Below the pieces are notes generated by a model. That model did no database searches. It was not told where the DNA came from and saw only the letters and a program-made list of their open reading frames with translations. From positions 335,234,001 to 335,298,000 of the forward strand of contig OZ024740.1 of NCBI GenBank assembly GCA_964016885.1: a DNA stretch of 64,000 bases, given 5' to 3'. Both the position numbers and the translations under genes were made by a program. The DNA is from Eledone cirrhosa. Its lineage: Eukaryota. This document shows positions 1 to 51,268 of the stretch, in pieces (position 1 is the first letter of the stretch; every line of letters begins with the position of its first letter).

Positions 1-310
1 AGATTTGATGGTATTTGTGGTTTGGCGGGAAGTTTTTCTCAAGGATATAAAAAAATTTTTTAGCAATATTATCCTTAACTTGTAAATTAAAAGGAGCATT
101 ATACCAAGTAACTCGTCTATTACGGTTTCTATGTTGTTTATTATTTTTATTATTTTTATAGGTTGTATCATGATTTTTACTAGGAGGATTAATGTTAATG
201 ATCTCACCACAACTATTTTTAGTTATATTTGTAGATTTAGGTGTTTTATCTTTTTTATTAGGAGTTTTATTATTAATATTTATTATAGTTGTATGATGAG
301 TAGTTTTTTG

Positions 311-394
311 AGGGTTACTATACTTTATATTAGGGTTACTATACTTTATATTAGGGTTACTATACTTTATATTAGGGTTACTATACTTTATATT
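311..394. repeat. 4 x 21-bp tandem repeat (agggttactatactttatatt) at the inversion junction
   Basis: Four exact units; the source sequence occurs once, reverse-complemented, at 1750-1770. Confidence 0.95.
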
Positions 395-396
395 AG

Positions 397-2664
397 AATA
401 CTTACAAGAATCCACCACACAACTTTTTACTTGAAGACTTCGAGAAAGACCTTTTTAATTTAATTAAACACCTCAAATTTAAAAAGTATAAATCCGTCTT
501 TCAAAAGGACCTTGATTCTACCCTATTGGACCTAAAAAAGTCTAAAAAAATCCATGTCCACTCGGACAAAACTGGTAACTTGTATCATATGGATATTGAA
601 CATTATAATGAGTTCATATATAAAGAACTCAGAAAAAATTATAAAAAATCTAATAATGTGTCACTCACCAACATCAACAACAAAACACACAACATAGTAA
701 AAAAACTAAACATTGAAGATAGAACTGAACCTTTGGCATTGAAAAGACCACACTTCAACCTGAAAGATCACAAATCTAACTTTAACTCTAATCCTTCTAT
801 TAGACTTATATGTCCCTCCAAATCAGATATTGGAATAATTAGCAAAAAAATTTTAGATAGAGTCATCCCACAAATAAGAAAACACGTTATTTTACCACTC
901 TGGGAAAACACCTCCCAGGTAATTAACTGGTTTAAAAATATTAGGTGTAAATCTTCTGCTTCTTTCCTACAATTTGATATAGATAATTACTATTCTTCTA
1001 TATCACCTATACTCCTGAACAAAGCATTAATATTTGCTAAAAATAGATCTAATTTAACTTCGGATGACATTAACATTATTACACATGCTAGACTAACACT
1101 TATTGAATTTCAGAATGAATACTGGACCAGAAACACATACAGTAATCTTTTTGATATTACTATGGGTTCAAGCGATTCCGCCCAAATTACTGATCTTGTG
1201 GGCCTCTTTCTCCTTTTCAACATAAATGCCTCTTTTCCCCACCTCAAAGGTGGTTTATATCGTGATGACTGTCTTCTTCTTTCTAACAACCTTAGCCTTT
1301 CAGAAATCGAAAAAAACAAAAAACATATTAGAACTTTCCTTAAAGACTATTATAATCTTAATATTACTTTTGAAAAAACAAGTAAAGTAGTAAATTTCCT
1401 AGATATAACTTTAGATTTAGCTACGGGTATATACCAACCTTACCATAAACCTAACCAAAACTTACATTACATACACTCACAATCTAATCACCCTAAATCT
1501 ATCCTTAAAAACCTTGCATATAATATATCACTTAGAATTTCTAACCTTTCTTCTAACCAAGATGTATTTGATAAAAATGCGACCTTTTATAATGAAGCTC
1601 TAGATAGAAGTGGCCACAAAAATAGATTAGAGTATATACCTTCTACTAAAAATACTGAAAGCATACAGCATAATATTACCAACAAACACCAAATGAAAAG
1701 TACACACCTAAATGCCACCCACAATATACCCCAAAATACTAAATCTTCTAATATAAAGTATAGTAACCCTCAAAAAACTACTCATCATACAACTATAATA
1801 AATATTAATAATAAAACTCCTAATAAAAAAGATAAAACACCTAAATCTACAAATATAACTAAAAATAGTTGTGGTGAGATCATTAACATTAATCCTCCTA
1901 GTAAAAATCATGATACAACCTATAAAAATAATAAAAATAATAAACAACATAGAAACCGTAATAGACGAGTTACTTGGTATAATGCTCCTTTTAATTTACA
2001 AGTTAAGGATAATATTGCTAAAAAATTTTTTTATATCCTTGAGAAAAACTTCCCGCCAAACCACAAATACCATCAAATCTTAAATAGGTCTACAGTTAAA
2101 TTCTCATACTCTACAACAAATAACATAAAACAAAATATAAGTGCATATAATGCATATAAATGTAAGAAAACCATAAGTATACCACCAGTACATCAAATTA
2201 ACAATAATATCTCCTCAAATACAGAATTAACGAAAGGATGTAACTGTAGAAACAAAACAAACTGCCCATTAAAAGGGAATTGTCTTGTTAACAACATAGT
2301 CTATAAATGTAATGTTAAAACTAAAGATTCTATTTGCTCATATATAGGAGCTACCTCTAACAATTTTAAGACAAGGTTTAATACCCACAAGCATAGTTTT
2401 AAAAATGCCGCACTGGCTAATACAACATCTCTAGCAGAAAAAATCAATAGTTATAAAAATAAGAATATAAAATATGATTTGACCTGGAGTGTGCTCAAAA
2501 GAGCCACCCCTTATCAAAATAATAGAAAGGAATGTAGATTATGTTCCCAAGAACTATTTGAAATAATGAAGTCTAAGGATATCTTATTAAATAAACGACA
2601 GGAATTAATTATATCTTGTAATCATAAACTAAAAAAAACATTTAAATATTATAAACCTAATTAA
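397..2664 (+). CDS. PLE reverse transcriptase + C-terminal GIY-YIG endonuclease, 5'-truncated
   Basis: Frame stays open upstream of the called 526 start (NPPHNFLLEDFEKDLFNLIKHLKF). Motifs: DKT, FDIDNYY, MGS, catalytic YRDD (1258-1269), VNFLD, YHKP, SNHP, CNC..CPLKGNCL, NIVY..YIG..FKTRFNTH, CRLCSQE, LLNKRQE..SCNH. No internal stops. Confidence 0.93.
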   Translation, partial: NTYKNPPHNFLLEDFEKDLFNLIKHLKFKKYKSVFQKDLDSTLLDLKKSKKIHVHSDKTGNLYHMDIEHYNEFIYKELRKNYKKSNNVSLTNINNKTHNIVKKLNIEDRTEPLALKRPHFNLKDHKSNFNSNPSIRLICPSKSDIGIISKKILDRVIPQIRKHVILPLWENTSQVINWFKNIRCKSSASFLQFDIDNYYSSISPILLNKALIFAKNRSNLTSDDINIITHARLTLIEFQNEYWTRNTYSNLFDITMGSSDSAQITDLVGLFLLFNINASFPHLKGGLYRDDCLLLSNNLSLSEIEKNKKHIRTFLKDYYNLNITFEKTSKVVNFLDITLDLATGIYQPYHKPNQNLHYIHSQSNHPKSILKNLAYNISLRISNLSSNQDVFDKNATFYNEALDRSGHKNRLEYIPSTKNTESIQHNITNKHQMKSTHLNATHNIPQNTKSSNIKYSNPQKTTHHTTIININNKTPNKKDKTPKSTNITKNSCGEIININPPSKNHDTTYKNNKNNKQHRNRNRRVTWYNAPFNLQVKDNIAKKFFYILEKNFPPNHKYHQILNRSTVKFSYSTTNNIKQNISAYNAYKCKKTISIPPVHQINNNISSNTELTKGCNCRNKTNCPLKGNCLVNNIVYKCNVKTKDSICSYIGATSNNFKTRFNTHKHSFKNAALANTTSLAEKINSYKNKNIKYDLTWSVLKRATPYQNNRKECRLCSQELFEIMKSKDILLNKRQELIISCNHKLKKTFKYYKPN

Positions 2665-3139
2665 TAACATTATTCTAGAAATTAATTTAATTTAAATGTT
2701 AGTTAACCTATAAATTTAATTTAATTAATATTTTATTACAGATGAGAAAATATTATGTAATCATAAATTGTGAAAAACCTTTAAATATTACTAATATATA
2801 CTTAGTAATTTAATTTATAGATTAATTTTAATTTATTTAAACCTTTTTTTATTATAAATTTTTTTTTTATTATAATTCTTTTACAGATAAAATATAACAA
2901 AATAATATCATGTATCCAATGACGGAGAAATAATTTTTAGTATTATAGACCTAATTAATATACATTTTGGAAATATATTTATTATTTGGTTTTAGTTTTA
3001 ATCAACCTAAAAATTTTAATTTTAATTTGCTTAAAATTAGTATCCTTATACAGACGAATTGCAGAATGTCATGTAATCATAGAATGGGATGTGTTTTGGA
3101 TATATACCTAGTTAATATATTCTGTGCAATTTTTTGAAA

Positions 3140-3214
3140 AAGATATGTATATGTATATGTGTATGTATATGTGTGTGTTGTGTATGTGTATCTGTATGTA
3201 TGTATATATGTGTA

Positions 3215-3263
<49 letters not shown>

Positions 3264-4413
3264 ATATGTATGTATATGTGTATGTGTATGTATATGTATA
3301 TGTATGCGTATTAATTTTGATTTCTATTTGCATATAATTATATTATGCTATTGATGAAATACAATATCTGCTTTATGTATTGTATACCTAATTAACATAT
3401 ACTAATTAACGTATACTATTGAAATAAATATATAATTTTTAATTTAGTTAACATATAATTTATATGCTACTACCGATGTAATACTTTATTTTATTTTTAT
3501 TTGGGTTTCTTTTCCCTATTACTAAATTCATCTCCTAATATTGATACCATAACGTTATTAACTTTAATTTAGTTATACTGTAATTAATAATCTACTACTG
3601 TTTGACTTCAAAATTCTGCTTCAAATATTATAAACCTAACTAATTTACACCTTAGAAATCAATATGTTGACTATCTTTGGTTTAGTTAACATATGATTAA
3701 TGGTATACTTATTTATTTTGAGATGCATAGATTTCGTATTTCCTAGCACTGAAAATATGTAAGAACATACATTGAATTAAGATACGGAAAATATTATATG
3801 TTTCTTGTAACATATATTTACTTTGATCCCCTTCTCCAAACCCCCCCTTTCCCCCATACTATTATCATCTGTATTTGTAAGCGTCTATGTATGAATATAT
3901 ATGTAGGTAGGTGTCTATATAGGTTTGGGTATTTATATCTAAATATAAAAATACATATATGAGCATGCAAATATGAATGTAAGATTGTGTGTGTATATAT
4001 GATTGTACATACATATGTATGTATATATATGTATATATATGCATTATATATGTATGTGTATGTGAATGTGTTGTATGTATATGTGTATGTATGTGTATAT
4101 ATGTGTATGTATGTGTATGCTTGTATATATAGGAATATATATATGTGTATATATGTATGTATATGTATATGCGTGTATGTATGTATGTGTTTGTGTGTTG
4201 TGTATATATATGTATGTCTCTCTATTTATATGTTTATCTTCGTATCTATGTGATATATGTGTGTGTGTGTGCACGTATGCATATGTATGTGTTAGTGTGT
4301 GTTTGTATGTGTGTGTGTATATATGTGTATGTGCGCACACGCACATACACATATATATATATATATATGTGAGTGTGTATGTGTGTCTGTGTGTGTGTGT
4401 GTGTGTGTATGTG

Positions 4414-4449
<36 letters not shown>

Positions 4450-4753
4450 GATATATATATATATATATATATAGGTGTCTATGTGTGAATATATGTCTTT
4501 ATTCGTATGTGTGTATTTATGTATGTATATATTTATGTGTATGTATGTATGTGTATGTATGTATGTATATATATATATATATATATATGTATATGTATAT
4601 ATATATATGTATATTATTCTTTATTATTATAATATAACTTATGTGTATATGTGTATAAGTGAGATTGTGTATGTATATGTAATATGTGTATATATAAGAG
4701 TAATAAAATATATATATATATATATATGTGCATGTCTGTTTTTTATGTGTGTG

Positions 4754-4789
<36 letters not shown>

Positions 4790-4917
4790 TATACGTGTGT
4801 GTATATAGATATATATATATATATACATGTGGGTGTTTGTATGTGTATTTATGGTGGTATGAGTGTGTGGATATATATGTTTATATATATATATATATAT
4901 ATATATGTATGAGTCTA

Positions 4918-4968
<51 letters not shown>

Positions 4969-5286
4969 ATATATGTGTGTGTATATATATATATATGTGT
5001 ATGTATGTGTGTATATATATATATCTCTATTAATGCGTGTGTGTATGTATATACATATGCCTTTTTATTATTATTTTTATTTGTATGTCTGAGTTTGGTG
5101 AGGTTGTATTGTTTTTTATGTATATACACATATATGGAAGCGTATGTATTTATATATATGAGTATAAGTAGGTGCATATGTATGTATGATTATATATCTA
5201 ATTCTATGTATGAAGGTACATCTATATATATATATATATACGTGTGTATGTAAGTTGTGTGTGTATGTATCTATATGTCTATGTGA

Positions 5287-5334
<48 letters not shown>

Positions 5335-5423
5335 CGATGTGCGTATATGTATGTACATGTATGTACATGTATGTGTGTATGTATGTGTATGTATATTTAG
5401 ATGTATGTGTATGTATATGTATA

Positions 5424-5476
<53 letters not shown>

Positions 5477-6050
5477 ATATATATATATATATGGATATAT
5501 ATCTTTATTATCTATTTTTTATATATATGTGTATGTGTGTATGTGTTGCGCGTGTGTGTGTGTATATATATATCTTTTTATATGTGTATGTGTATGTTCG
5601 TGTAAGTGTATGTGTGTGTATGACTGTATATGTATGTGTGTATGTGTGTATGCGTAAATATCTCTATGTGCGCGTACATGTATGTATGTGTATATATATC
5701 TGTATGTGTATGTATATTATATTATATTTATTATATTTTATTGTTTTATTTTTTTATTTTTCTTAATTTATAGATACATTTATATTAGGCAGTCTGCTCA
5801 GACAATTGAATACTGACCCCTCCCCCCCCCCCCCTCCCACCTAATTTCTGTATCTTGATCTTGAAATGTGTGTGCCAGTGTTTTATGTGAGTGATTTAAT
5901 TTCTATGTGCTTATGATTTTATATCCACATATATAAATGTGAGTGGGGGAGTGTGTGTGTTAGTATGTTCGTGGTTATGTGTATATTTATGCATATACGC
6001 GCATGTATGTGTGATTATACTGATATGTGTGAGTATGAAAAAATATATTT
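3140..6050. repeat. Compound imperfect (TA)n/(TG)n/(TATG)n low-complexity tract
   Basis: Direct reading; densest at 3140-3305 and 3980-5720. Confidence 0.9.
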
Positions 6051-6301
6051 ATATGCTTGACTCCATAAGTATCAATGCGCATCTTATCAGCGCATTAAGC
6101 TTACAGAGATATTAACCTTGAAATTTTGTGTTTGCATCCATCTTTTTAGTATGCGTATACAAATTATACACACATTTTTGTAAAATATGTGTAAGGATTT
6201 TACATGTATATACACACACCGAACTGCTTTTAACCCTTTGTGTTTTCATTGGTCAATTTTGAACTGATATTTTGAATTGTTGTTATTATCAATAAATATA
6301 C

Positions 6302-6456
6302 TTCATTATTTCTGAAGACGGCGTATATATGTGTTAGATATGTATATTTAATCTTGATAATTTGTATAATTTTGTATAATTTTGTACATAAATCTGTTGA
6401 ATATGCATACCAATTATAACACATATATACCCTAGAAACGATCGTTAAATAATGAA
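6302..6456 (+). ncRNA. Type I hammerhead ribozyme with ~116-nt stem II
   Basis: Stem I ttcattattt/aaataatgaa; CTGAAGA 6312-6318; stem II includes gtatatatgtgtta/taacacatatatac; GAAA 6435-6438; palindromic stem III cgatcg; GUU site. Confidence 0.8.
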
Positions 6457-6501
6457 CTTTTTTTGTTTAATATAAGGAATTGTTTATTCATTATTTGTTT
6501 A

Positions 6502-7005
<504 letters not shown>

Positions 7006-7039
7006 TACACGAGTGTGTATGATTGTGTATAGAAGATTA

Positions 7040-7353
7040 TATTAATAAAAGGAATTCCAACTTGGTGTGATTTACTCGTTTTATTTACAATGCTTTAAAA
7101 TGTATAATGGTATTAGAATGAAATAGTATGGTAGAATATTAAATGTTAAGTGTTAATTTTCAACTCAGTTGAAAATTGCAAGCTTGACTGTCACCACACA
7201 TTATGAACCTGAAGATTGCGAAAGCATGAAAGTACTTGTTCAATTAACACTTAACATTTAATATTCTACCATACTATTTAATTCTAATACCATTATACAT
7301 TTTTAAGGATTGTAAATAAAACGAGTAAATCAGACAAATCATTCCTTTTATTA

Positions 7354-7355
<2 letters not shown>
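7040..7355 (+). mobile_element. PLE terminal fragment with inverted partial pLTR
   Basis: 7041-7158 is an imperfect reverse complement of 7242-7355; an HHR lies between the arms; ends in (TA)n. Confidence 0.75.
7204..7242 (+). ncRNA. Minimal type I hammerhead ribozyme
   Basis: tgaac-CTGAAGA-ttgc gaaa gcat-GAAA-gtac-TT-gttca. Confidence 0.85.
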
Positions 7356-7389
<34 letters not shown>

Positions 7390-7954: not shown

Positions 7955-8753
7955 GAGAGAGAGAGAGAATAAGGAAAAGCGAAGTAGTTTCAGCTGTTCA
8001 AGTCCTTTAATAATAAAGCTGTGATATATATTTCAATGGCGACAGTGGCCACACTGTTCCGTGCGCCAGTGCCGCGACATCGTCAGACAGCTTGTTACAT
8101 AATAAGGTTATGTTTCCGAGGCAATCCAAATTAAATCGACATCTGAAGCTACTTCGCTTTTCCTTATTCGATATTTACTCCGTCACTCCTATGTGGAATA
8201 AGTACGTTGAGTGCTTGAATTGAATTGCATCAAGGTTTACCTTAAGAATTTAGCTCCAATTAGTTGAGCGTTCTATGATGTAAGCGATATAGTGAAGAAG
8301 AGAGGAACCAGCCACCAGCTACACCCGGAAATTCCCTCTTCCATGGGGATGGAACTCCCTTATACTGGACGGACATAAAAATAACTTCCGGCAGGATATA
8401 TACGCGGAAACAAAAACAACAATAAACCCCTATTTTCCTGCACCAAATTGCATTTGAACAGAAGCCCCCTCAATTCAATCTATATATGGACAAATTGACA
8501 ATCATATTTATCATGTATCTCCTATCTCATTTTGCATATATGTACTGTATGTGTTTTTTGCATTTATGTGATACTTTTTTGATATTTTTTGTGTTTTTTC
8601 TTTTGTGTACTTACTTCATATATGGGTGTGTGTGTGTGGGGGGGGGGGGTCCATGTGATAGAAATTCTAACTATGTACCCGCCTAACTACTACCTCTCAT
8701 ACTGTAATTTACCATCCGTTCTACTGTACAGTACTATCGTTCAGTATGTAGAT

Positions 8754-8937
8754 AATTGTCTCTACTTTAGGCACAAGGCCTGCAATTACCCAGTGCGTTA
8801 CTGGTACTTTATCTTATCGACCCCGTAAGGATGAAAGGCAAAGTCAACCTCGGCGGGATTTGAACTCAGATCGTAAAGGGACGTAACTATGCTGGAAAGC
8901 ATGGCGTCCGACCCTCTACCGATACTGCCAATCCACG
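8754..8937 (-). mobile_element. tRNA-type SINE, family A
   Basis: Recurrent ~185-bp unit with B-box-like gttcaaatccc and central gcctttcatccttacggggtcgataa. Confidence 0.85.
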
Positions 8938-14211: not shown

Positions 14212-14678
14212 TATATAAATTATTCTGATTAATTTTTTAACCTATGTAAACCGTAGTGACTGACCCACATGGTAATTTCAGACCTTCGTCTAATGACACG
14301 CCCAACAATTTTAGCAAAGTTAGTATCTCTCACAACCTGCTTGCTTACAAGAACAGCTATATACATCGTATGGTTACTGGTAGCGGGACTGCTACCACCA
14401 CAGTAGCATATCAAAAACAAAATCATTACAACTTAACACTTGTCTGATGAAAACACGTTAAAGGGTTATTATACAATCACTTTGACGTTTTTGAAATATG
14501 TATATCAGGATGTTATAATAAAGAGTGTACATTCTCTCTTTATTATAAAATCCTGATGTACATATTTCAAAAACGTCAAAGTGATTATATAATAACACTT
14601 TAACGTGTTTTCATCAGACAAGTGTTAAGTTGTAATGATTTTAGATAGGATAAAAAAGTAATCAGAATAATTTATATA
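14212..14678. mobile_element. Fold-back element (A-B-C-C'-A') with two opposed long-stem-II hammerhead motifs
   Basis: 14419-14525 pairs with ~14535-14642; the ends are inverted repeats; HHR-like motifs at 14439-14510 (+) and 14551-14622 (-). Confidence 0.75.
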
Positions 14679-17922: not shown

Positions 17923-20469
17923 AGGGAGGGAAGGAAGGGAGGTAATTATAAATAGATTTTTAATACCGTTTGTCTTCATATTCCCGCTCAGTGACTTAAG
18001 TATAGATGATGGATTAGACTGTGCAGCTTGCTCTCATTTAACTGACGTTAGTGCAAACAAATAACTTGGACGTCACTGATGTCATAGTATTATATACGCG
18101 TGGGCGCATATACAGAGGACCATGATGACAGGGGGAGAGAGCAGGTTGAAACATATGTTTGCTTTAGCTGATTGTGGGGATTAGCTATTTGAAGATGTAG
18201 ATTTGCGCATGAAGAGAAATGCAGTAAGCACTTGTTCCCAGAGGCAAATCTCTTTATTTATTATGCAAAGCTATTACGCATTGTGCGTTATATATTACTC
18301 GTATATATGATATATTGAGCATCATGTATTATATATCATGTATACAGCTATGTTTTGAAGTCAAAATAAGAAGCAAAGTGAAAGTCTGAGAATTAAAAGC
18401 CTATAATATTCGCGCCTGCGTCATACTGCGTATTTTCAACACGTTCCCCATCATCGTTATCATCATCATTATCACATCATCATCTCATCAACATCATTAT
18501 CATCTTAACGGCAGCAATTTGGGACAAAGGGAAATTCAATTATGTTGATCCCAGTAGTTAACTAGTTCTTTATTGCGGTAGGATGAAAGGCAACGTTTAC
18601 CTCAGCAGAATTTTAATTCAAAATGGAGAAAGTCGTGACTAAATACAACACGTGAATATTAACGATAGAAGAAGAAGAAGAAGAAGAAGAAGAAGAAGAA
18701 GAAGAAGAAGAAGAAGAAGAAGAAGAAGAAGAAGAAGAAGAAGAAGAAATCCAATCAGCCTCGACAATTCCCCTGCTTTTACCCATATTTCCTGAAACAC
18801 ACTAGAGGGCAGCACTTCCCTCATTCTGCCCTCACCTTCATCTGAAAGTAGAAGTTATGAAAGCATGGTCGGATAGGACCATTCCTATCCTCTAACATTT
18901 TAAGTGAGTCCATTGTCATATGTACCAGGTAGAGGAACACATGCCACGTTTCCCTTCTAAAACAAATTGATTGTTCAATCCTCACTAAAGACATAGAGGG
19001 TAGATGGATCTTATCTAGACGAGATAACTATTTTTGACACAGGGCCTGAATTCTGGAAGACACGGCCACTTGGAAAAAACCATGCAGGATGGTCTTGTCG
19101 ACCTGAATACTTTTCGGATGGGTCCTGCTGCTGGCACTTTCCAGCCATAAAATGGTTGTTTCCTTATGTAGCACTGCCAAGACGTTTTATAAATTGTTCA
19201 TAATCCTCCACCTGAATATGCTCCAGAGAATCTGTTCAGACTATCCTCGTCATAACATAAGCCTGTTTCCAGGTGATCATTACATATGCCTTCCAGTAAT
19301 GTTTTATAAAATGTAAATGATTTTCTGGTCGTCTGTCATGTTTTTCAGCTAGCAACATTTCGTGAACGGTTGGCAGGACATTAGATGTCAGGTGCCTAGC
19401 CTTAGTTTGCTCTTGACCCAGTACTGTATCACAGTAAATGAGATGAGCCGGGGATATATCGCACGAAAATGCCCATACTAGTTGAACTTCACTTACATTG
19501 TCTTCGTCACTTTGGAACGAGGTAATTCCGCAGCGGTTTTAGTGGAAGTGCTGTGTGCGGATCATTAGAGGAGGAATGCCGGAGCCATTATGGAATGCAT
19601 GTTAGTAGATGAATCGTCAATACCATCATAAGAAAACATTGTATCTAAGACAATACTAGATCATGTAATTTTGAAAACTAATTTTTAAAAAGCTAAGATA
19701 GCCATAAGTGTAAAGCGTTTGGTCATTGGTTTGCTCAATTAGAGCTTACTCAACCTATAGCTAAACAAAAAATAAATTTTCGTCACGATAGTCTCTCCTA
19801 TTACCACAATAACAACCATAACAAAAATCACAAACACTATACCTACCAACACCATCACAATCACCGACACTAACATTATCGCCGATATCATAAGAACCCC
19901 GACTACAGAATGAAGGACAAACTTAATTCTAGCCAATCAGCAACACGATGAAGACCATAAGAAATGCTTCTAACAAAAACATAATTCGCAACAATAGTAA
20001 TTACAGTCGCCACTAAGCTCAGCGTTATACACCAACCACAATAACAATCACAGCTTTCACCATTACCACAAAGACACTAATCACTAGAAACTTTACTACC
20101 ACAACTATCGCATCCACTCAAATCACAGCCAACACCACTACCAGTGTTTTTGGTAGTTATATGAACTGATGCTAATGGTTCTACCCCACTACCATCATTA
20201 CACATCGACCACAAAACACAAACATATCAGAGTTATTACAATGTCTATCACATCTGTCACACCTCTAAAATAATCCTTTTGATCATAGTTCTGCTTAATC
20301 AGAGCTAACCTGGGGCTAAACAATAAATACGACATAAACCAATAGAAAAAAATAACGAACACGACAACCAAACAAGTACAAGACTAGGAACCATGCCACC
20401 ATTATTAATAGGAGTGGAACTGAAGTGGATTGTGATAAAGATTTTGTATGTGGGCAAATTGGCAATAAT

Positions 20470-20640
20470 AATTGTTTCTACATTTGGCACAAGGCCAGCA
20501 ATTATCCCAGTGTATTACTGGTATTTTATTTTATCGACCCCGTAAGGATGAAAGGCAAAGTCAACCTCGGCGGGATTTGAACTCAGATCGTAAAGGGACG
20601 TAACTATGCTGGAAAGCATGGCATCCGACCCTCTACCGAT
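20470..20640 (-). mobile_element. tRNA-type SINE, family A
   Basis: Same unit. Confidence 0.85.
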
Positions 20641-20768
20641 GTGATTCTCATAGCATTGCTGCACATCATATTACACTTAGCTGCCTACAGGCTGAGCAGG
20701 CTGATCATCATTATCGAGATCATCATCATTGATCGTATTTATCAGTGCGAATATCAGTAGCGACGTCC

Positions 20769-20821
<53 letters not shown>

Positions 20822-20822
<1 letters not shown>

Positions 20823-21512
20823 GTGGTTGAAGCACCATATTTACAAGGAGGAGGCTAGCCCACTGTGCAGGATCTGTGGAGAGAGAGAGGAGACTGTGGC
20901 TCACATTGTGTCCGAGTGTAAACACCTAGCCCAGACCCACTATAAGGGCTGGAGACACGATGTGATGGGCAGGGTGATCCACTGGCACCTGTGCAAAGTA
21001 AACAATTTACCACATTCTGAGAAATGGTATGAGCATAGGCCAGAGGCGGTGATGGAGAACAATCAGGTGAAGGTGCTGTGGGATTTTAGGATACAGACGG
21101 ACAAAAAACTGGAACACAATAGACCTGACCTGGTGGTTGTGGACAAAGAAAAAAGATCGTGTCTGATTGTGGATGTGGCCTGCCCTTTCGACACGAGAGT
21201 GCAAGAGAAGGAGAGGGAGAAAATTAACCGATACCAGGACCTAAAGTGGGAGGTGAAAAGGATTTGGAACTGCCATGAAGTCAAAGTGATCCCGATTGTC
21301 ATAGGCGCACTGGGGACTATCTCCAAAAGTTTCCAGGGATGGTTAAAGAAAATCGGCCCCTTCACGCTTTTTGGAACGCTTCAAAAGGCATGCTTGCTGG
21401 GAACAGCAAGAACCCTCCGATACGTCCTGAATATCTGAGGCTGCAGGTAGTGGCTTGATATTCATTCCAACGGACTTTCCAGTTAACCAACATCAATGAC
21501 TGAGATTCAAGG
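20822..21512 (+). mobile_element. R4/Dong-like LINE, 5'-truncated (CCHC + restriction-like endonuclease ORF 20827-21438)
   Basis: CRICGEREETVAHIVSEC, RHD, NRPDL..VDVACP, KINRY, GALG; flanked by (TAA)n on both sides. Confidence 0.88.
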
Positions 21513-21891: not shown

Positions 21892-21946
<55 letters not shown>

Positions 21947-21949
<3 letters not shown>

Positions 21950-22132
21950 TGTTTCTACTTTTGGCACAAGGCCAGCAATTAACCAGTGCATTACTGGTAC
22001 TTTATTTTATCGACCCCGTAAGGATGAAAGGCAAAGTTAACCTCGGCGGGATTTGAACTCATCATACAGGGAGGTAACTCTATTCTTCAAAGCATGGCGT
22101 GCGACCCTCTACCGATACTGCCAATCCACCGC
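21947..22132 (-). mobile_element. tRNA-type SINE, family A, inside (TAA)n
   Basis: Same unit, full head. Confidence 0.85.
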
Positions 22133-22133
22133 C

Positions 22134-22167
<34 letters not shown>

Positions 22168-35467: not shown

Positions 35468-38450
35468 TCATCATCATCATCATCATCATCAACGTTTAAC
35501 GTCCGTGTTCCATGCTTGCATGGGTTTGGACGGGGGTAGTCCCACTTGAGGCAAGAGTGATTGTCTTGCTCGCATAGGACTGTCTGGCAGGTTTTCTACA
35601 GTTGGATGCCCTTCCTAACACCAACCACATTTACAGTGTGGGTCTGGGAGGTTTTTACCGTGTTGCCTACACGGCCACATTACAGCGTGGACTGTGTGTT
35701 TTTTTGTCGTGACACCTACACGATCTCATTTGTTTCGGCCTCGATGGCGCGGCACCAACATAACTTTACATAGAACGGGGTGGTGTGGATCGGGTGGGGG
35801 TGGTGGTGGTGGGACGGGGTGTATTTTGTTAGAGATGCCTACTGGCTGGAGTAGGTTTTACTATATATTTAGGTAAGGCGGGTCTTCTCTGTTACTGAGT
35901 ACCGCCAAAGGTCTCGGTCCAGTGACATTGTCTTGGAGAGGTGTAAGTGTGTGATGTCGGAGTTTATCAGCTCGTCCCAGGTTTTTCTAGGTCTGCCTAT
36001 TCCGTGACTACCGTCTATCTTTATTGCCCTGCACTTTGTTATACAGCTATCGACTTTCATGCGCATCACGTGTCCATACCAACGTAGCCTTCTCTCGAGT
36101 AAACAACATCTGATCCCTCTTATCTCTAATTTTTTCCTTAGTTCGTTTATGCTTTGCCGTTCACGTATATTACTGTTACACATCCAGCGGAGCATGCAAG
36201 CTTCGTTCCTCTCTAGTCTGCGTATATCCTCTGCACACAATGCCCAGGTCTCACTGCCATGCAGCATTGCTGTTCGTATGCAGGCATCGTACAACCTGCC
36301 TTTCATTTTTAGTGAGAACCCTTTAGCAGCTAATAGTGGTATAAGCTCTCTGAACTTTTTCCAACCAGTTCTGACTCTAGCTACAGTACTTTCAGAGCAC
36401 CCTCCCCCACTGCTGATTTTATCGCCCAGGTAACGGAAGCTGTCCACTATTTCTATAGAACCCTCTGCGCAATTGAAAGAGCTAGTAGTTTGTGGGCACT
36501 TGCTGCTACTTATTGCACCAGAGCACCGGCCACATGTAAAATCTATGTTCTTAGTTAGCTTACCTGTGATCCCACTACATCTTTTATGCACCCATACTTT
36601 GCATTTAGGACATAAAATGGAGTTTCTACCTACGCCTTTCCTACACACCGAGCACGACCATTTCCCAGAAGGGACCCCCGCCTTGTTTTCTTTCCTACAA
36701 ACTAGTACTTTGGTCTTAGCCAGGTTAATTTTAAGTCCTTTTGACTCTAGGCCGTGCTTCCATGTTTGGAATTTCTTCTCTAGCTCGGCCATTGATTCCG
36801 CTATGAGTGTCAGGTCGTCTGCGTATAGGAGTTCCCATGGGCAGCCTGTCTTGAACTCCTCTGTTATAGCCTGAAGGGCAATAATAAATAGTAGTGGACT
36901 GAGAACAGAGCTCTGATGGACGCCAACTTTTACGCTAAACTCTTCACTATATTCGTTGTTAATTCTAACCTTGCTGACTGTTTCTTTATACATGGCTTGT
37001 ATAGCCCTCACAAGCCATTCGTCAACGCCTAGTTTTCTAAGAGCCCACCAGATAATGGAGCGGGGGACTCTGTCGAAGGCTTTCTCCAAGTCGACAAAAG
37101 CTAAGTAGAGGGGTTTACCTTTAGCTAGGTACTTCTCCTGTAGTTGTCGTACTATGAAAAGAGCGTCTGTGGTACTTTTGCCTGACACAAACCCGAACTG
37201 CATTTCATCTAGGTCAATTCTCTCTCTGATTAGTTGCGCTATTACTTTTTCCGTGACCTTCATGACCTGGTCGATTAATTTAATGCCTCTATAGTTACTC
37301 CTATCTAGGGCGTCTCCTTTACCCTTATAACAGTTAACGATGATGCTGCTATGCCAGTCCTTCGGAACAACCCCATTCTGTACGACTTGGTTAACTATGC
37401 GGGTGACCATGGTGTGTCCCACCGTGCCAGATGCCTTCAGCATCTCAGCAACTATTTCCGAAGGCCCAGCCGCCTTACCAGTCTTCATATCCTTGATTGC
37501 CTTACTTATTATACTCCCCTCGACTAACACTGCTGGTCCCTCTATTGGGTCGATATGGGGGAGACTGCCTTTCTCCCAATTATTCTCCTCATTTAGTAGC
37601 CTTTCATAGTGACACTTCCAAGCTACCTTCTTATCAGCGTCGGTGATGGCAAGTGTGCCATCGTCGTTTAGTACACACTTCTCCCCGACAATATCACGGT
37701 TTTCCTTGACGCATTGCCTAGCAATCCTGAACACCTCACGTTTTTGGTCATCGCGTTGTAGAACATGCTTGAACTTTCTTTCCTCAGCTTCCCTTCTTGC
37801 TAAGTACACTTGTCTCCTAGCTTCCCTCCTGGCCACTTGATAGTCCTCTCTACTTCCCCATCCTGCCATACTTTCCAAGCCTGCTTTTTGGCCTTAATTA
37901 ACCCCTCCACCTTACTGTTCCACCACCATGTTACTCTCCTCCTGCCTACAGGCCTGCTCCAGCCACAGACCTCGTCTGTCGCCAACAGCAGGTTTGCTTT
38001 CAGAAATTCCCACTCTCCCTCTATATTGTCCGACTCTAAATGTTCTTCCTTACTGTCGAAAGCATCAAGTAATATGCTTTGAAATTTATTCCTGGCTGTG
38101 GGGTCCTTTAGCTTCCATATTTTCCTCCTGAGGATAGTCCTCTTCTGTTGTCGAGTACGTCTCGTCCTGACTATGAGGTCGCTAATTATCAGTCTATGTT
38201 GGGAGGTGCATTCTTCATGGGGGAGGGATTTAGTGTTAACAACAGACACTCTGTCACGTCTTCTGGTAAGGATATAATCTACCTGGCTTGTGTGTTCCCC
38301 GGATCTATAGGTGATCAGGTGATTGTCACGTTTTTTGAAGTTAGTGTTACAGATAGTTAGGTTATTTGCATCACAGAATTCCAGGATTCTGGCGCCTTCC
38401 TCATTTCTAGTACCAAACCCATAGCCTCCATGGATTTCGTCGTAGCCGTC

Positions 38451-38452
<2 letters not shown>
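35468..38452 (-). mobile_element. RTE-clade LINE, 5'-truncated, (GAT)n tail, inserted in (TA)n
   Basis: APE C-terminal motifs (SQVDYIL, SQHRLI) and an RT ORF; tail at 35468-35490. Confidence 0.92.
35869..38452 (-). pseudogene. RTE APE-RT ORF with a single frameshift near 37860
   Basis: QFGF, DLEKAFD, HQSS (for QGS), YADD, YLG. KQAWKVWQDG in one frame continues as GSREDYQ in another. Confidence 0.88.
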
Positions 38453-38525
<73 letters not shown>

Positions 38526-40218
38526 TAGTAACCATGTTATACGACAAGTGTACACTTAAATTTTTTAGCATGGTATTTTCTCAGTTTAGCTTCCATAGAG
38601 CGTTCACACATTACCAGAAGCAGGTACAAATCAGTTAATTTTGCAACTCGGTAGATATTATCTTCCTAGTTTAGGCTCAGTTTTACCCAATCACCCAACA
38701 CATTAATCGGAAAACCAAAATATATTTACTTTTTAAAACCACAACCTGCGCATATATTTTAATATTCAGAACTGGTGTGAAAGTGTTTTCATTCCCATAT
38801 CTGTACGTTATCGGCATTAAATGTCCATTTTTCTCTTTCTTTACAAATATTATACAATAACGTAAAATGCACACTTTAACACATTTTGGAACGACTAGTT
38901 GGCAGTGACAGGTTTGTCGCTCCGAACAATAATATCTCTATTCTAGATATTGACTGCTTGTAGAGAATGTTGATAATAGATTTTTTTACCTCAGTCCATA
39001 AGAATGAATGTGTTGAAATTTCATGAATACAATCACATTGCTGAAATCACCACGTTTTCTTCTATGAACAATACTACAATACCACCATCAACTAATCACA
39101 AGAGAGCGGTTATATGACCCTTGACCTATGTTCCTTTACACCTATTTACTCTATAGCGCTTTCACTTAAAGGTATTCATCTTGGTAGATGTTCGTTCTCG
39201 TGCTAAACTTTATATATTTCCTCCAGTAAATGTATTCTGCAGTAACTCCCCCATCAACGATTTATCGTAAGCATATCGATTTGTACAATGCACATAAGGC
39301 AGCAGATTTATAAGTCAATAGAAATAAGAGGGTATAATACTTGAATCCTTTTAAGAAATATTGACAAGGTAAGTGAAGATATAATTCCCGGCGCTAATAT
39401 ATAATATTTGTGCAGGGAAATTAATTATTAAGTGGTACAACATCCACTCCCATTTCGTATCATTTAGGGAAATATTTTCGATCGGAATGAAATCAAATGC
39501 TCTCAACGTTTCTATAAATATTACCCATTATCTATAAGGTACCCGATCTATATTTATAACTAAGCACACTTTCTATACAACTAGTATCGAAATCAAGCCA
39601 TATCCACTCGCTTCCCAGTCTTTTCACCAATGTTCAACCATAAGTATTCCAATGAGAAGAGATGTCTTGTTAATATTATAAAAGGCTCAAATGCAGCGGA
39701 GTGCTACGATCACTAGAGCATCGAACAGAATATTCTATGGTACGTAATTACAAGCTTCTATATACAGAATGCAAATCCTGCCAATGTCAAATTTGCTTTA
39801 AATCATACTGCTATCAATAAATAAAGTAGCAGTCAAGTACTGTAGTCGATTTAATCATTTACCAAACTTTCTAATCTTGTACCAATGTTAAAAATTAGTA
39901 ATAATACGACACATTAATTTAATAATAATTGATGTTGATATTGCTCTCCCAAAATAAAACGGGGCTTCTTATTTAATCACCTCCAATTCTGACCTAATTG
40001 AATTGCAAACTATTTTAATCATCCTGACAATTCTTTTCACAATTACATTATCAGCAGCAGCCTCATTCCTCACCATCCTCATCATCATCCCTGTCACTTC
40101 TACCTAAGTAATTTGTGAAAACCTGAGGACGCAAATGCATATGGGCTTGTACCCTCACACATATATGTATGCACATAGATGTTACATCTGTTCATCTCCT
40201 AGATCTCTCTCTCTCTCT

Positions 40219-40279: not shown

Positions 40280-41741
<1,462 letters not shown>

Positions 41742-42788: not shown

Positions 42789-44687
<1,899 letters not shown>

Positions 44688-46858
44688 TATATTTGTTTTT
44701 GTGTATATATATGTATATTATTACAAGGTCATGACTTGCAGCTATGGTTGTCAGAGTTACACACGTTTACCATACAATTTAACGCACGGAGTACGACATC
44801 CCGCGTTCAGTTGCCTCTTAACAAATTATAACATTACATCATATGCTGAACGCATGTAACCACATAGCAATGTTAACATTTACCAACAGTGCTGTTATTC
44901 TGTCTTCCATTTCTCTCACCTCACCATTCTTAATATTCCGACTCAACTTCCATGATGTCTTTCACGCAATTGAAGCATTTTTTTTTCACTTTTTTCCAAT
45001 ATATTGAATATAATTTCTTTAAGAATTCAATAGTAATATTTCTTCAACAATCATTATTATCATTATAATAATTATTTTGATTGAATTTGCCGCTGCTGTC
45101 GGTATTGTTGTTAGTGATGTGGTGGCGGTTTGTGGCAATGGTGGTTATAATAAAATTATACACATTAATATTTTTTTATATTTTTCCACGTTTTACTTTC
45201 AAATTTAGTTTCAAAAGAAACAAAAAGAAATATTTTTTTATGAATCATTCTTTCCTGTTTTCTTTCTATATTGTCATCTTTTTCTTTCTCATCTTCTGTT
45301 TCTTCAGTGACAATACAACTTGATAACCACTGTTAACTATTTTGCTATTACATTTCTCCTGTTCTTTTCTTTCTATCTTACACTTTTCAACGACTGCAAA
45401 CCTTCTGTCATATTCGACATGATTCTTAGCTTGAGATAAGTTTTTTTTTCTGTTTTATATTTTATATTCCATAATTTCATATTTTCAGAATATTTCCCTC
45501 ATTTTATTACATTTTCTTCATATTTATTTTTAGTGTTAAATAAGATATAACTTTGCCTCTATCTCAGGATTACTGGCTTCAGTTTTCAATTAAATATTCA
45601 TTATTTACTATATCCGATCATGTTTCATTAATATTTCATGAGAGATGTGAGCATCGAATCTTAGTGCAAAATTATTGTCCCACAATTGTTTATATAAGCA
45701 AACACACCATATATACATCATACACGCACATGTACACAGTCAATCATATAATATACCCACCATACATACATCTCTGAAAACATAGTCTTATTGTTGTTTA
45801 GCTCAAAGTAATCCCACGACCTAATCAAAGGCTTCCAGCTCTGACTACACTTTTAGTATTTCAGGTACATTGATGTTTGAAATGATTATCACCAATATGT
45901 ATGTGTGACTTTGTGTATATTTGTGCTTATATGTATATACATGCACATATGCATATATGAATATACATAAATTCGTATAAAAATTATAAATTTCAATCTA
46001 ACGTTTTAATGTAAACAATCAAACATTAACAGTCTAAAATTGAAGGGAAAAAACTGAAAAAAAAAAGCTATTTGAACCCCGTATTTTTTGTTCGTCACAT
46101 AAATGCTATATTACATATAACATATTGAGTTCACAATATTTCCTCTTTTAAATTTATTAGAAATATCTATCTGCTATACTTATCATCCAACTAGTCATTG
46201 TCTTTGAATGTTTACGGCAAATTATGAAGAATTTAGTTGTGCCTCTTCCACTAAAGTTAATTTATTCTAATTCGTTTGAGAGACGATAATTAAGTTAATG
46301 AATATAATGAATGATAAAATAACGGTCAATATTTCACATAAACGAAACTGAATAGTAAAAAGATTGATTGTAAAGAATAAATAGAAATTAAAAACTACAA
46401 CAAAGCAATTAAGGAAAATTAAATAAGTCATATTGATGGATCCTCTGTGGATTTCGAAAATGAACATTTATTTCTTCAATCACCGGAATCATCTGACTGT
46501 TGAAATTGCTGTATATGTGTCCAACGATTCCACATACGCGTGTAGCTTTAATACATTTCTCAGGCAGAATCAGAGTGACATATGTGACAAGACTGCGTCA
46601 TTAAATTCAATCGATCCAGCGGGCGTAATTTCACTCACAATGTTTGGGTCGATCTCTGGCCAAGTTTAAACACATACCAAAGTTAGCACGCGGTGGGATC
46701 CAACCTTTCGCATTTAGTCATTCTTGTGCCCATATTGAATACAGTGTGAAACGAGTCACATTTGGTTTGATGCACGAGGAAGTGGTGTAATAGTAGATAT
46801 AGTATTAAGAGGTCTATGAGATATAACCATAGTTAATTGTATATATATATATATATAT

Positions 46859-49456: not shown

Positions 49457-49623
49457 CATTAATTCATATAGATTCATATATATATATATATATATATATA
49501 GGAGGTGAGTTTTATTGTAGTACAATAAAGCTATGCAGATATCGGATAAGAAGCACTCTACAGTTTGTAGGACTGGAGTATACATAATATAAGATCAAAA
49601 GATGGTTAAAGGAGTTCCATGTA

Positions 49624-49690
49624 TTTTATTATGCGCATTTCAAAAACAAACATCATCATGCAATAATATTTGTGTTTTCATCAGATAAAA
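49624..49690 (-). ncRNA. Type I hammerhead with extended stem II
   Basis: ttttat-CTGATGA-aaacacaaatattat tgc atgatgatgtttgttttt-GAAA-tgcgca-TA-ataaaa. Confidence 0.85.
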
Positions 49691-50929
49691 CAGGAGAACA
49701 TGATATGAAGGCTAAAAAACACTTGTGGATAGTGCAGTTTTAAATCAACATATGAAAAGTGGTTTTAGATTGATGTGTGATATTGGGAAGAATATTTTAT
49801 TTAGAGAGGGGGGGTGGAAAGGATGAAAAAGGGGAGGAGATGAGAGGGAGAGATGGGTGATAGAGAGAAAGAGATAGTTTTTTATAACTGAGAGAAGATA
49901 TATTGTTTTACATAGAGAGGTTGAAAACCGTTGGAAGATAATGTATAAATTAAAAGAATTTGAAAATTAACGAAGGGAAAGATATGTACGAGGAAAAAAT
50001 ATTTTATTTAGGGAGGGGGGTGGAAAGGATGAAAAAAGGGGGAGGAGATGAGAGTGAAGGTGGAGAGGGAGAGATGGGTGATAGAGAGAAAGAGATAGTT
50101 TTTATAACTGAGAAAAGATATATTGTTTTACATAGAGAGGTTGAGAACCGTTGGAAGATAATGTATAAATTAAAAGAATTTGAAAATTAGCGAAGGGAAA
50201 AATATTTGCGAGGAAAGAGAGGGAGTTTATGTATGAAGATAGAGAGAAAAAAATAATAATTGTGGATGAATATTCTAACGTCAAAAAGGTGTATGTTGAT
50301 AAGTATTGTGGCAATTTCAAAATTAACGAAGAGAAAAAATTATTAAGGTTTGTGTGTAGAAGGATTTGAGAAAAATAATGTGAAGTTAAAGTTTGTATTT
50401 TGAAGGAATTGATAATATGTGCGAAGAACGAGTTAATATGTATTAAGAATGAGTTCGTTGATGGGGAGAAAAAAATAATAAATTAAGGATGAAATTGAGA
50501 TTAAAAAGTTTTATGATAGAGAGAAAAAATGATAATAATTGCGGATGAATATTCTAACGTCAAAAAAATAAATGTATATGTTATGAAGGATTTTACAAGG
50601 TGAAGATAGAAAGAGGGTAATGAGTAAACAAATATTATAGAGTGTATAATGCCCTTTAAAGTAAGGTAGGAAGATGGGTATATTTTAAAGAGGTGTATGT
50701 ATATGTGCCTTTGAGAAAAGATTCTAAATTGATAAAGAATTGAATATTAACTGTATACTTTGTGAAAAGTCCTATGGAATTTATGCAGGCAGATAGAAAA
50801 CAAATCTGTACGTCTATTTATTACAGAATCTATAGATTTGTTTTCTATCTGCCTGCATAAATTCCATAGGACTTGTCACAAAGTATACAGTTAATATTCA
50901 ATTTTTAGCCTTCATATCATGTTCTCCTG

Positions 50930-50996
50930 TTTTATCTGATGAAAACACAAATATTATTGCATGATGATGTTTGTTTTTGAAATGCGCATAATAAAA
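50930..50996 (+). ncRNA. Identical inverted copy of the 49624-49690 hammerhead
   Basis: CTGATGA 50936-50942, GAAA 50979-50982. Confidence 0.85.
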
Positions 50997-51028
50997 TACA
51001 TGGAACTCCTTTAACCATCTTTTGATCT

Positions 51029-51070
<42 letters not shown>

Positions 51071-51074
<4 letters not shown>

Positions 51075-51268
51075 TTAATATAGATGAGATTCTACAGGAC
51101 TAGAACTGTTTCATTCTTTAGAAATCATCAGGAATCCTCATGATTTCTAAAGAATGAAACAGTTCTAGTCCTGTAGAATCTCATCTATATTAAAACTTTT
51201 ATACTCTGCTATGTTTTGAGTACCTTACTTACTCTGGTTACCTCCGATTCAACCCGGAATAACTTACC
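51071..51268 (+). mobile_element. PLE terminal fragment: 127-bp palindrome of two back-to-back hammerheads
   Basis: Arms 51071-51133 and 51135-51197; the tail 51198-51268 resembles 35393-35455. Confidence 0.8.
51088..51136 (-). ncRNA. Type I hammerhead ribozyme (same family as 13706)
   Basis: gattc-CTGATGA-tttc taaa gaat-GAAA-cag ttctagtc ctg-TA-gaatc; the plus-strand twin has CTCATGA. Confidence 0.88.

Follow-up and report, generated by a model that had tools for sequence, protein, structure and literature searches.

What can a hammerhead ribozyme do for the retrotransposon that carries it when its two core boxes lie 116 nt apart, and which RNA would it cut? The question is raised by positions 6302-6456 of a 64,000-nt stretch of the Eledone cirrhosa genome (contig OZ024740.1, 335,234,001 to 335,298,000 of the forward strand; the window). 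From its letters this segment had been described as a hammerhead with a giant stem II, linked to an intact ORF, with cleavage to be expected after position 6446. Both the role of hammerheads in Penelope-like elements (PLEs) and the regeneration of the PLE pseudo-LTR are stated open questions (PMC2377424, PMC8557442), and for the latter PMC2377424 sees no obvious mechanism.

The element and its hammerhead

The features that bear on the question are the following.

1-333, minus strand: end of an inverted, 5′-truncated arm of the element, the reverse complement of 1748-2080 (100%)
334-381, no strand: filler of short tandem repeats between the arms, from sequence
382-2664, plus strand: RT-GIY-YIG ORF of a Hydra-clade Penelope-like element, by its DKT, YRDD, CxCX5C, YIG, CxxC..E and CxH motifs
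2665-6304, plus strand: 3.6-kb microsatellite-rich 3′ UTR, part of the element (97-99.6% repeat in the inverted arm and tandem units)
6248-6254, plus strand: ATTGG (reverse CCAAT) box, a putative promoter element, at -57 to -82 from A6305 in 12/12 read-through copies of both families
6291-6296, plus strand: AATAAA, fixed 14 nt upstream of A6305, at the same position in 12 copies of both families
6302-6456, plus strand: type I hammerhead ribozyme motif with a stem II about 5 times the usual length, from sequence and predicted fold
6302-6311, plus strand: stem I 5′ strand, with an initiator-like TTCATT that includes A6305, the modal 5′ end of short copies
6312-6318, plus strand: core box C3-A9, CUGAAGA, from sequence
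6319-6434, plus strand: 116-nt stem II, with C/A mismatch, 2 bp, C/C mismatch, 14-bp helix, 13-14-bp helix and apical helix
6435-6446, plus strand: core box G12-A15.1 (GAAA, 6435-6438), stem III and N17 = U, from sequence and fold
6447-6456, plus strand: stem I 3′ strand, pairing perfectly with 6302-6311
6487-6496, plus strand: second copy of the stem I 5′ strand, a predicted competing (off) hairpin, from fold and sequence
6497-6590, plus strand: short 3′ end of the element at about 6510, then the (TA)n target, from sequence

On its sequence the element is evidently a high-copy Hydra-clade Penelope-like retrotransposon with a hammerhead in its pseudo-LTR. The inverted arm (L031:3579-8000) matches 6510..2081 at 99.6% identity, reaches 4.4 kb past the upstream edge of the window and includes a second ribozyme and a long tail. 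ORF end, 3′ UTR and ribozyme have thus been duplicated together, and because the arm repeats 1748-6510 the 3.6 kb of microsatellite DNA and the ribozyme belong to the element. This bears out the proposed linkage of ribozyme and ORF. The ORF itself is not intact as originally described. It has no stops from 397 to 2664 and its homology starts at 382, and the copy is 5′-truncated: of the 813-aa family ORF it lacks the initiation codon plus some 53-58 codons. Tandem units elsewhere in the genome are ~6.6 kb long and encode the 813-aa ORF. Allowing up to two mismatches, the 22-nt 3′ core is matched 15,742 times in the 3.0-Gb genome (control 1), a count that may include sister families, and ribozyme and tail lead into the 5′ UTR at 317 junctions. 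Copies terminate at either of two points ~137 nt apart, adjoining (TA)n; two alternative 3′ ends are expected from two RT initiation sites (PMC11167929).

The characters of the Hydra clade are present: a single ORF in which the RT is followed by a C-terminal GIY-YIG, the motifs SDKT, RVRWR, CNCRNKTNC, CRLCSQE and CNH (compared with section 11 of PMC8557442 as available), a (TA)n target, tandem and inverted copies, a tail and a 3′ hammerhead. The ~6.6-kb unit departs from the short size of the clade (<3 kb), which is a tendency rather than a strict criterion. A Pfam scan of the window ORF returns no family. In an RT tree of the Eledone genome's own families and 15 of 118 homologues, with published Hydra sequences compared by eye, the two long-arm lineages group as sisters, as a single origin of long arms would have it, at a support of only 80/78. 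Pieces of the element family are present in sequencing-run contigs of three organisms, and one of these contigs has the same inverted junction at the -7 site as L032. A 310-bp tandem satellite lies just upstream of the window (L031:1-1347). At the start of the 3′ UTR, 2725-3115 holds three loose repeats, one with CAGAUGA...GAAA, which are possibly decayed ribozymes and show no hammerhead fold. Two LINE copies on the minus strand (35869-38555 and 43179-44717) are 95% identical over 1.8 kb and encode an endonuclease, an RT and an inserted PHD finger.

Every structural detail of the original prediction is reproduced, from the 10-bp stem I and both core boxes with their 116-nt spacing to the stacked helices between them. 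Three helices surround the core, with the open ends in stem I. C3-U4-G5-A6-N7-G8-A9, G12-A13-A14-A15.1 and U16.1-H17 are all in place. Stem II contains a perfect 14-bp helix (6323-6336/6417-6430), a 13-bp helix with two G-U pairs (6339-6351/6397-6409) and, in the minimum free energy (MFE) structure, an apical helix with 10-nt repeats; its base is a C/A mismatch, with a C/C mismatch at the fourth position. Stem III of the monomer is only 2 bp, closed by GAUC within a 10-nt palindrome (6437-6446), and the predicted cut follows U6446 in a GUU triplet. The C/C mismatch, this stem III and the competing strand at 6487-6496 add to the original description. The stem II terminal loop is more than 35 bp from stem I, so the canonical loop II-stem I tertiary contact cannot form. 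Positions 6290-6470 fold at -43 kcal/mol (z -5.38; 0/200 shuffles equally good), and stem II has a z of -7.1 against mononucleotide shuffles. A hammerhead descriptor requiring a stem I of at least 10 bp has one match in the window and none in 100 Markov-resampled windows. An Rfam scan (141 matches at E<=1) reports no hammerhead family and misses the window's short-arm motifs too; its matches are microsatellite-driven miRNA only, below the gathering score.

The 10.1-11.1 position of a type I hammerhead is paired, usually as G-C, and is C/A here. The mismatch had been noted at the outset as a possible cause of reduced activity. It may still slow cleavage, and both C/A at this position and the GUU triplet are suboptimal. 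Judged by sequence, it is normal for the Hydra clade and not decay of the window copy: A11.1 occurs in 98/99 full copies, and C/A at 10.1-11.1 is also found in PLE-X1_cBra (PMC8557442 File S2, as available). U/U is the best-tolerated mispair there, and natural active exceptions to the pairing are described in the accessible part of PMC3088659.

Homologous copies retain the core boxes, whose loss would have spoken against the motif; since the copies were found by core patterns, their conservation among the 99 full copies is partly by construction. Stem II measures 104-126 nt in these copies, changing by 10-nt repeat units, and 98-103 nt in a sister family whose ORF pieces are 55-80% identical. 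Basal stem II covaries: four of seven pairs change on both sides and 303/303 cells are paired, against 37-51% in slid controls, in an alignment of 19 sequences that is effectively one two-family comparison and is in register only at the arm base. Stem I covaries at its tenth pair and is 14 bp long in the sister family. In a third family stem II is unrelated and 81 nt long (1,248 matches), further Hydra families of the genome have one of about 20-25 nt (the 25-nt case by eye), and hammerheads occupy the same position in four other families. All catalytic nucleotides are retained across families with ORFs 42-54% identical. Most likely the long arm grew by slippage and is tolerated, with selection keeping its base paired; it also extends the terminal repeat, from some 45 nt to some 140 nt.

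Other hammerheads of the genome vary as well. Those of the L156 and L171 families have C at position 4 (CCGAAGA) in every copy seen; the L156 family is the one with the 81-nt arm, which carries a bulged U after 4 bp. A palindromic short element at 7038-7358, with arms 80% identical, has a short-arm hammerhead at ~7210 (12-nt stem II) that recurs in L164 and L170. Hammerhead-like motifs also lie at 14419-14642, 40370-40541, 49579-49718, 50735-51197, 8015-8100 and 57995, several of them within inverted repeats. Their stem II lengths include the intermediate values 26, 36, about 42 and 45 nt, and arm length seems to vary over a range in the genome.

Two patterns of 5′ ends

The 5′ ends of copies were mapped at all places of two pattern listings in the first 67 Mb of contig C1. 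Among 117 arms, 41 start between -12 and 0 relative to C3 (17 exactly at -7, which is A6305), 60 read further upstream (~6 of these look by eye like -5 to -9 starts or misalignments) and 16 begin within the ribozyme. The counts are non-independent, since an inverted pair contributes both its arms and a tandem array several of its units. In the sister family 20/26 scorable copies start near -7. The modal start is -7 both where stem I ends at -10 and where it ends at -14. The family with the 81-nt arm shows no pile-up near the core, with only 2/30 starts within 15 nt. Many short copies form tail-out pairs 250-310 bp apart, which are independent events because their fillers differ. None of the 117 mostly terminal copies starts at the cut site.

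An extra G at the junction points to a cap. Genome-wide, G precedes ATTATTT 649 times against 2456 for A/T, and at the next base, taken as control, the figures are 50 for G and 436 for C/T, giving an odds ratio of 2.3, or ~6.5 against T alone with T shares estimated by eye from the first 100 matches listed. Among 30 inspected G junctions, ~5 could draw the G from the opposite arm and ~3 from local duplication. An extra G marks the cap in L1 insertions and likewise reflects it in SVA insertions (PMC11702581, PMC2912911, as far as available). Taken together, the sequences suggest that the RNA probably has a capped start at A6305, inside stem I.

The motif around A6305 is initiator-like. A DPE-like motif stands at +28 in 5/6 sister-family copies and in 0/6 of the window's family. 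Only the spacing of the upstream AATAAA is informative, because 11 of the 12 copies compared had been pre-filtered for AATAAA within 30 nt. This AATAAA could be the poly(A) signal of the element, brought to the U-rich tract by the folded ribozyme; its fixed place recalls retroviral U3 poly(A) signals, which are brought near their site by a long hairpin. An alternative hammerhead register that would cut NUC/A6305 was rejected: the sequence holds no matching enzyme strand or stem III.

A tRNA-like SINE is inserted independently at the site equivalent to A6305 in L245, L246, L247 (both arms), L239 and L228. These insertions mostly carry target duplications, the 3′ end of the SINE matches the target, and the loci come from a pattern that favours such junctions. 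The same SINE lies at 8744-8936, 20464-20640 and 21940-22144 of the window and elsewhere. The fusions of SINE and ribozyme at A6305 were considered as template jumps and discarded, most being secondary insertions by their target duplications. An ORF fragment at 20761-21438, presumably R4/Dong-like, has the look of CCHC plus a PD..D-type endonuclease, adjoins (AAT)n and has no Pfam match; it is a possible partner of the SINE.

ORF-linked copies begin differently. Inspection of 92 of the 317 junctions into the 5′ UTR finds none that starts between -12 and 0, 76 that read through and 16 that are truncated downstream of C3; the Fisher p against 41/101 is 2e-12, inflated by non-independence. Three of the 16 truncated arms start at the cut site (+0, +1 and +2) and six within +0..+13. 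The p for the three is about 0.003 under a uniform model with the interval picked after seeing the data, and the cluster consists of 3-6 arms, a single locus supplying two of these. Among terminal copies, joins exactly at the cut site number 12 in the genome, and cDNA fold-back fits them equally well. The tail pattern is blind to terminal copies trimmed past the cut site, of which two were found as partner arms. Thousands of copies retain the uncut site and the downstream tail.

Folding, mechanism and alternatives

Folds given here are nearest-neighbour predictions, which leave out tertiary contacts and protein. In isolation, 6302-6456 forms stem I with a probability of about 0.98; the active monomer has a probability of 0.013, falling to 1e-4 with natural flanks. 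The active monomer is improbable because the core boxes pair mutually and 6487-6496 competes for the 3′ strand. The original prediction had named a dominant alternative fold as grounds for doubt. This doubt applies in part: in its flanks the lone copy is predicted to be dominated by the competing fold, which makes simple monomeric cleavage unlikely. An RNA starting at A6305 has a stem I probability of at most 0.04, against 0.5-0.96 with upstream bases and a 10-nt 3′ extension. Adding the tail lowers stem I in the window's family, and the sister family stays at 0.76-0.95. Two copies behave differently. Left unconstrained, the dimer of 6302-6456 takes the form of a double hammerhead (-96.2 vs 2 x -40.7), and in flanked two-copy RNA a fold that would let the 3′ copy cut the 5′ one is more favourable than two separate monomers in 7/8 set-ups. 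This fold lies 2-7 kcal/mol above the predicted MFE in the window's family and about 1 in the sister family.

Taken with the motif, the covariation and the 5′ ends, these predictions favour, with a probability of roughly 0.6, a mechanism in which the RNA of this type I hammerhead with its 116-nt stem II starts at A6305 and cleavage requires two copies on the same transcript, paired by the palindrome of stem III. That cleavage does take place in the two-copy RNA is put at slightly better than even odds. A promoter in the 3′ UTR would start a capped RNA at A6305. At such a 5′ end the ribozyme would be left with a 7-bp, all-AU stem I, would stay unfolded and would keep its cap. Reverse transcription from the tail would run off at the cap and give the short copies, about 40% of the family. 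ORF-length RNA would bear a second ribozyme with the full 10-14-bp strand, able to pair with and cut the 5′ copy. Cutting plus ligation, or a jump between the long repeats, would then yield a template without a capped end, and from this the promoter-bearing pseudo-LTR and the tandem arrays would be rebuilt. A circle or an end-to-end jump is needed because none of the 76 read-through ORF-linked copies stops at A6305; the data fit either. Dimer dependence and weak, protein-assisted cleavage are known in PLE hammerheads (PMC4209133 and PMC11167929, in their available parts), dimer cleavage is also summarised in the accessible text of PMC6765202, and a circle has been proposed for PLEs (PMC4209133, likewise in part). 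Speaking against the model, mutating the ribozyme of an Anolis PLE left insertion in vitro unaffected (PMC11167929).

A more tentative proposal is that the start site splits stem I as a switch. The lone capped ribozyme would be off, and only ORF-length RNA with two ribozymes would cut and circularise. The giant stem II would serve as a long terminal repeat for end joining, and both RNA ends would survive in the genome as fossils, the capped one in the cap-G starts of short copies and the cleaved one in the cut-site starts of ORF-linked copies. If true, the switch would give in vivo evidence on how Penelope-like elements regenerate the pseudo-LTR.

Some of the same data suit a hammerhead descendant that barely cleaves and works as a structured terminal repeat, with RT reaching the capped end and jumping to the identical 3′ repeat as in retroviruses, perhaps aided by the palindrome and the long arm. 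This would explain the 0/92 ORF-linked stops at A6305 and the 0/117 cut-site starts, and it agrees with the dominance of competing folds and with uncleaved RNA as the main substrate (PMC11167929). It is nevertheless doubtful: the catalytic nucleotides are all kept across divergent families, 6/16 truncated ORF-linked arms begin 0-13 nt past the cut site, and the jump would need an efficiency above 95%. The pile-up at A6305 has also to be considered as the place where reverse transcription halts, with the cDNA snapping back where the long hairpin ends, or where a different nuclease cuts, beside an ordinary PLE hammerhead with a long arm. The family without the pile-up has the less stable arm (-23 vs -37 kcal/mol), the site is also a favoured target of the SINE, and stem I pairing constrains TCATT as well. 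However, a structural stop should affect ORF-linked copies, and 0/76 of those passing the site stop there. The position-specific G would be unexplained, the mode is -7 whether stem I ends at -10 or -14, and the junctions face the inverted partner arm and not the 3′ end of an inserted element, which together leave this explanation improbable.

The simplest reading of the original prediction, in which a monomeric ribozyme efficiently cleaves all transcripts after 6446, can draw on the stem I probability of the isolated segment, and in a read-through 3′ copy folding could precede synthesis of the competing strand. It is very improbable given the 2-bp stem III with its palindromic loop, the low probability of the active monomer and the thousands of copies in which the uncut site and the downstream tail are present. 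Nor did the motif arise by chance as a hairpin of AT-rich, microsatellite-like sequence. GC content of the region is 27%, (TA/TG) runs and 10-nt repeats occur in the arm, and Rfam is without a hammerhead match, but covariation and the 0/100 resampled windows refute such a reading, and the motif sits at the expected PLE position, where four other families also place hammerheads.

Relation to known systems

A hammerhead in a Hydra-clade PLE is expected; the greater value as a lead lies in the fossils of start site and cut site. In a young family with thousands of copies, the two 5′-end signatures make the role of PLE hammerheads and the regeneration of the pseudo-LTR directly testable. The literature searched, which excluded subscription journals, Repbase and bioRxiv supplements and was in part available in extract, contains no giant stem II and no cap-ended PLE copies. 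The core search used for PLEs in PMC8557442, in its accessible description, takes short spacers (7-17 nt, half cores 35-50 nt). PLEs regarded as ribozyme-less may hide long-arm variants, because a stem II of 80-126 nt escapes both that search and Rfam.

Compared with the Hydra-clade PLEs of PMC8557442, as far as its text and files were available, the element shares the RT with C-terminal GIY-YIG, the motifs DKT, RW[KR], CxCX5C, CxxC and CxH, the (TA)n target, tandem and inverted copies and a type I hammerhead near the 3′ end. The published Hydra rows (File S2) have a basal stem II mismatch in 15/26 and U at N17 in 10/26 by our own count, and both are found here. Unlike the published elements, the unit is ~6.6 kb with a 3.6-kb 3′ UTR (vs under ~3 kb), stem II is 98-126 nt (vs at most 26 nt in the 26 rows) and the tail is ~137 nt (vs 30-40). 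Hydra-1_Obim is distinct, having a different ribozyme, and three family motifs have no matches in the supplement.

The minimal, dimer-dependent PLE hammerheads (PMC4209133; Anolis PAc, PMC11167929), judged by the accessible parts of both papers, likewise have a short palindromic stem III, low predicted monomer activity and a choice of two 3′ ends that correspond to two RT initiation sites. The helix II called "large" there is only 6-8 bp, unlike the one here, and a start inside stem I or cap-ended short copies were not found for them in those parts. In Drosophila virilis Penelope, as available in PMC2377424, the pseudo-LTR also holds a promoter with Inr and DPE, and an upstream copy drives the downstream ORF. 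There transcription starts 46 nt before a 75-nt intron, and the end of this intron adjoins helix I (PMC4209133, in part), whereas the putative start here is within stem I. The discontinuous Clec2 hammerhead (PMC6155905, in part) also has its core halves split by a long insert; it differs in being type III, with the insert in helix I and in a host gene 3′ UTR. Non-LTR retrozymes (bioRxiv 10.64898/2026.07.22.740005, in part) are likewise short, non-coding, hammerhead-bearing derivatives of a PLE pseudo-LTR. They are head-to-tail tandems, whereas the short copies of the Eledone element are solo or form tail-out inverted pairs from the putative cap site.
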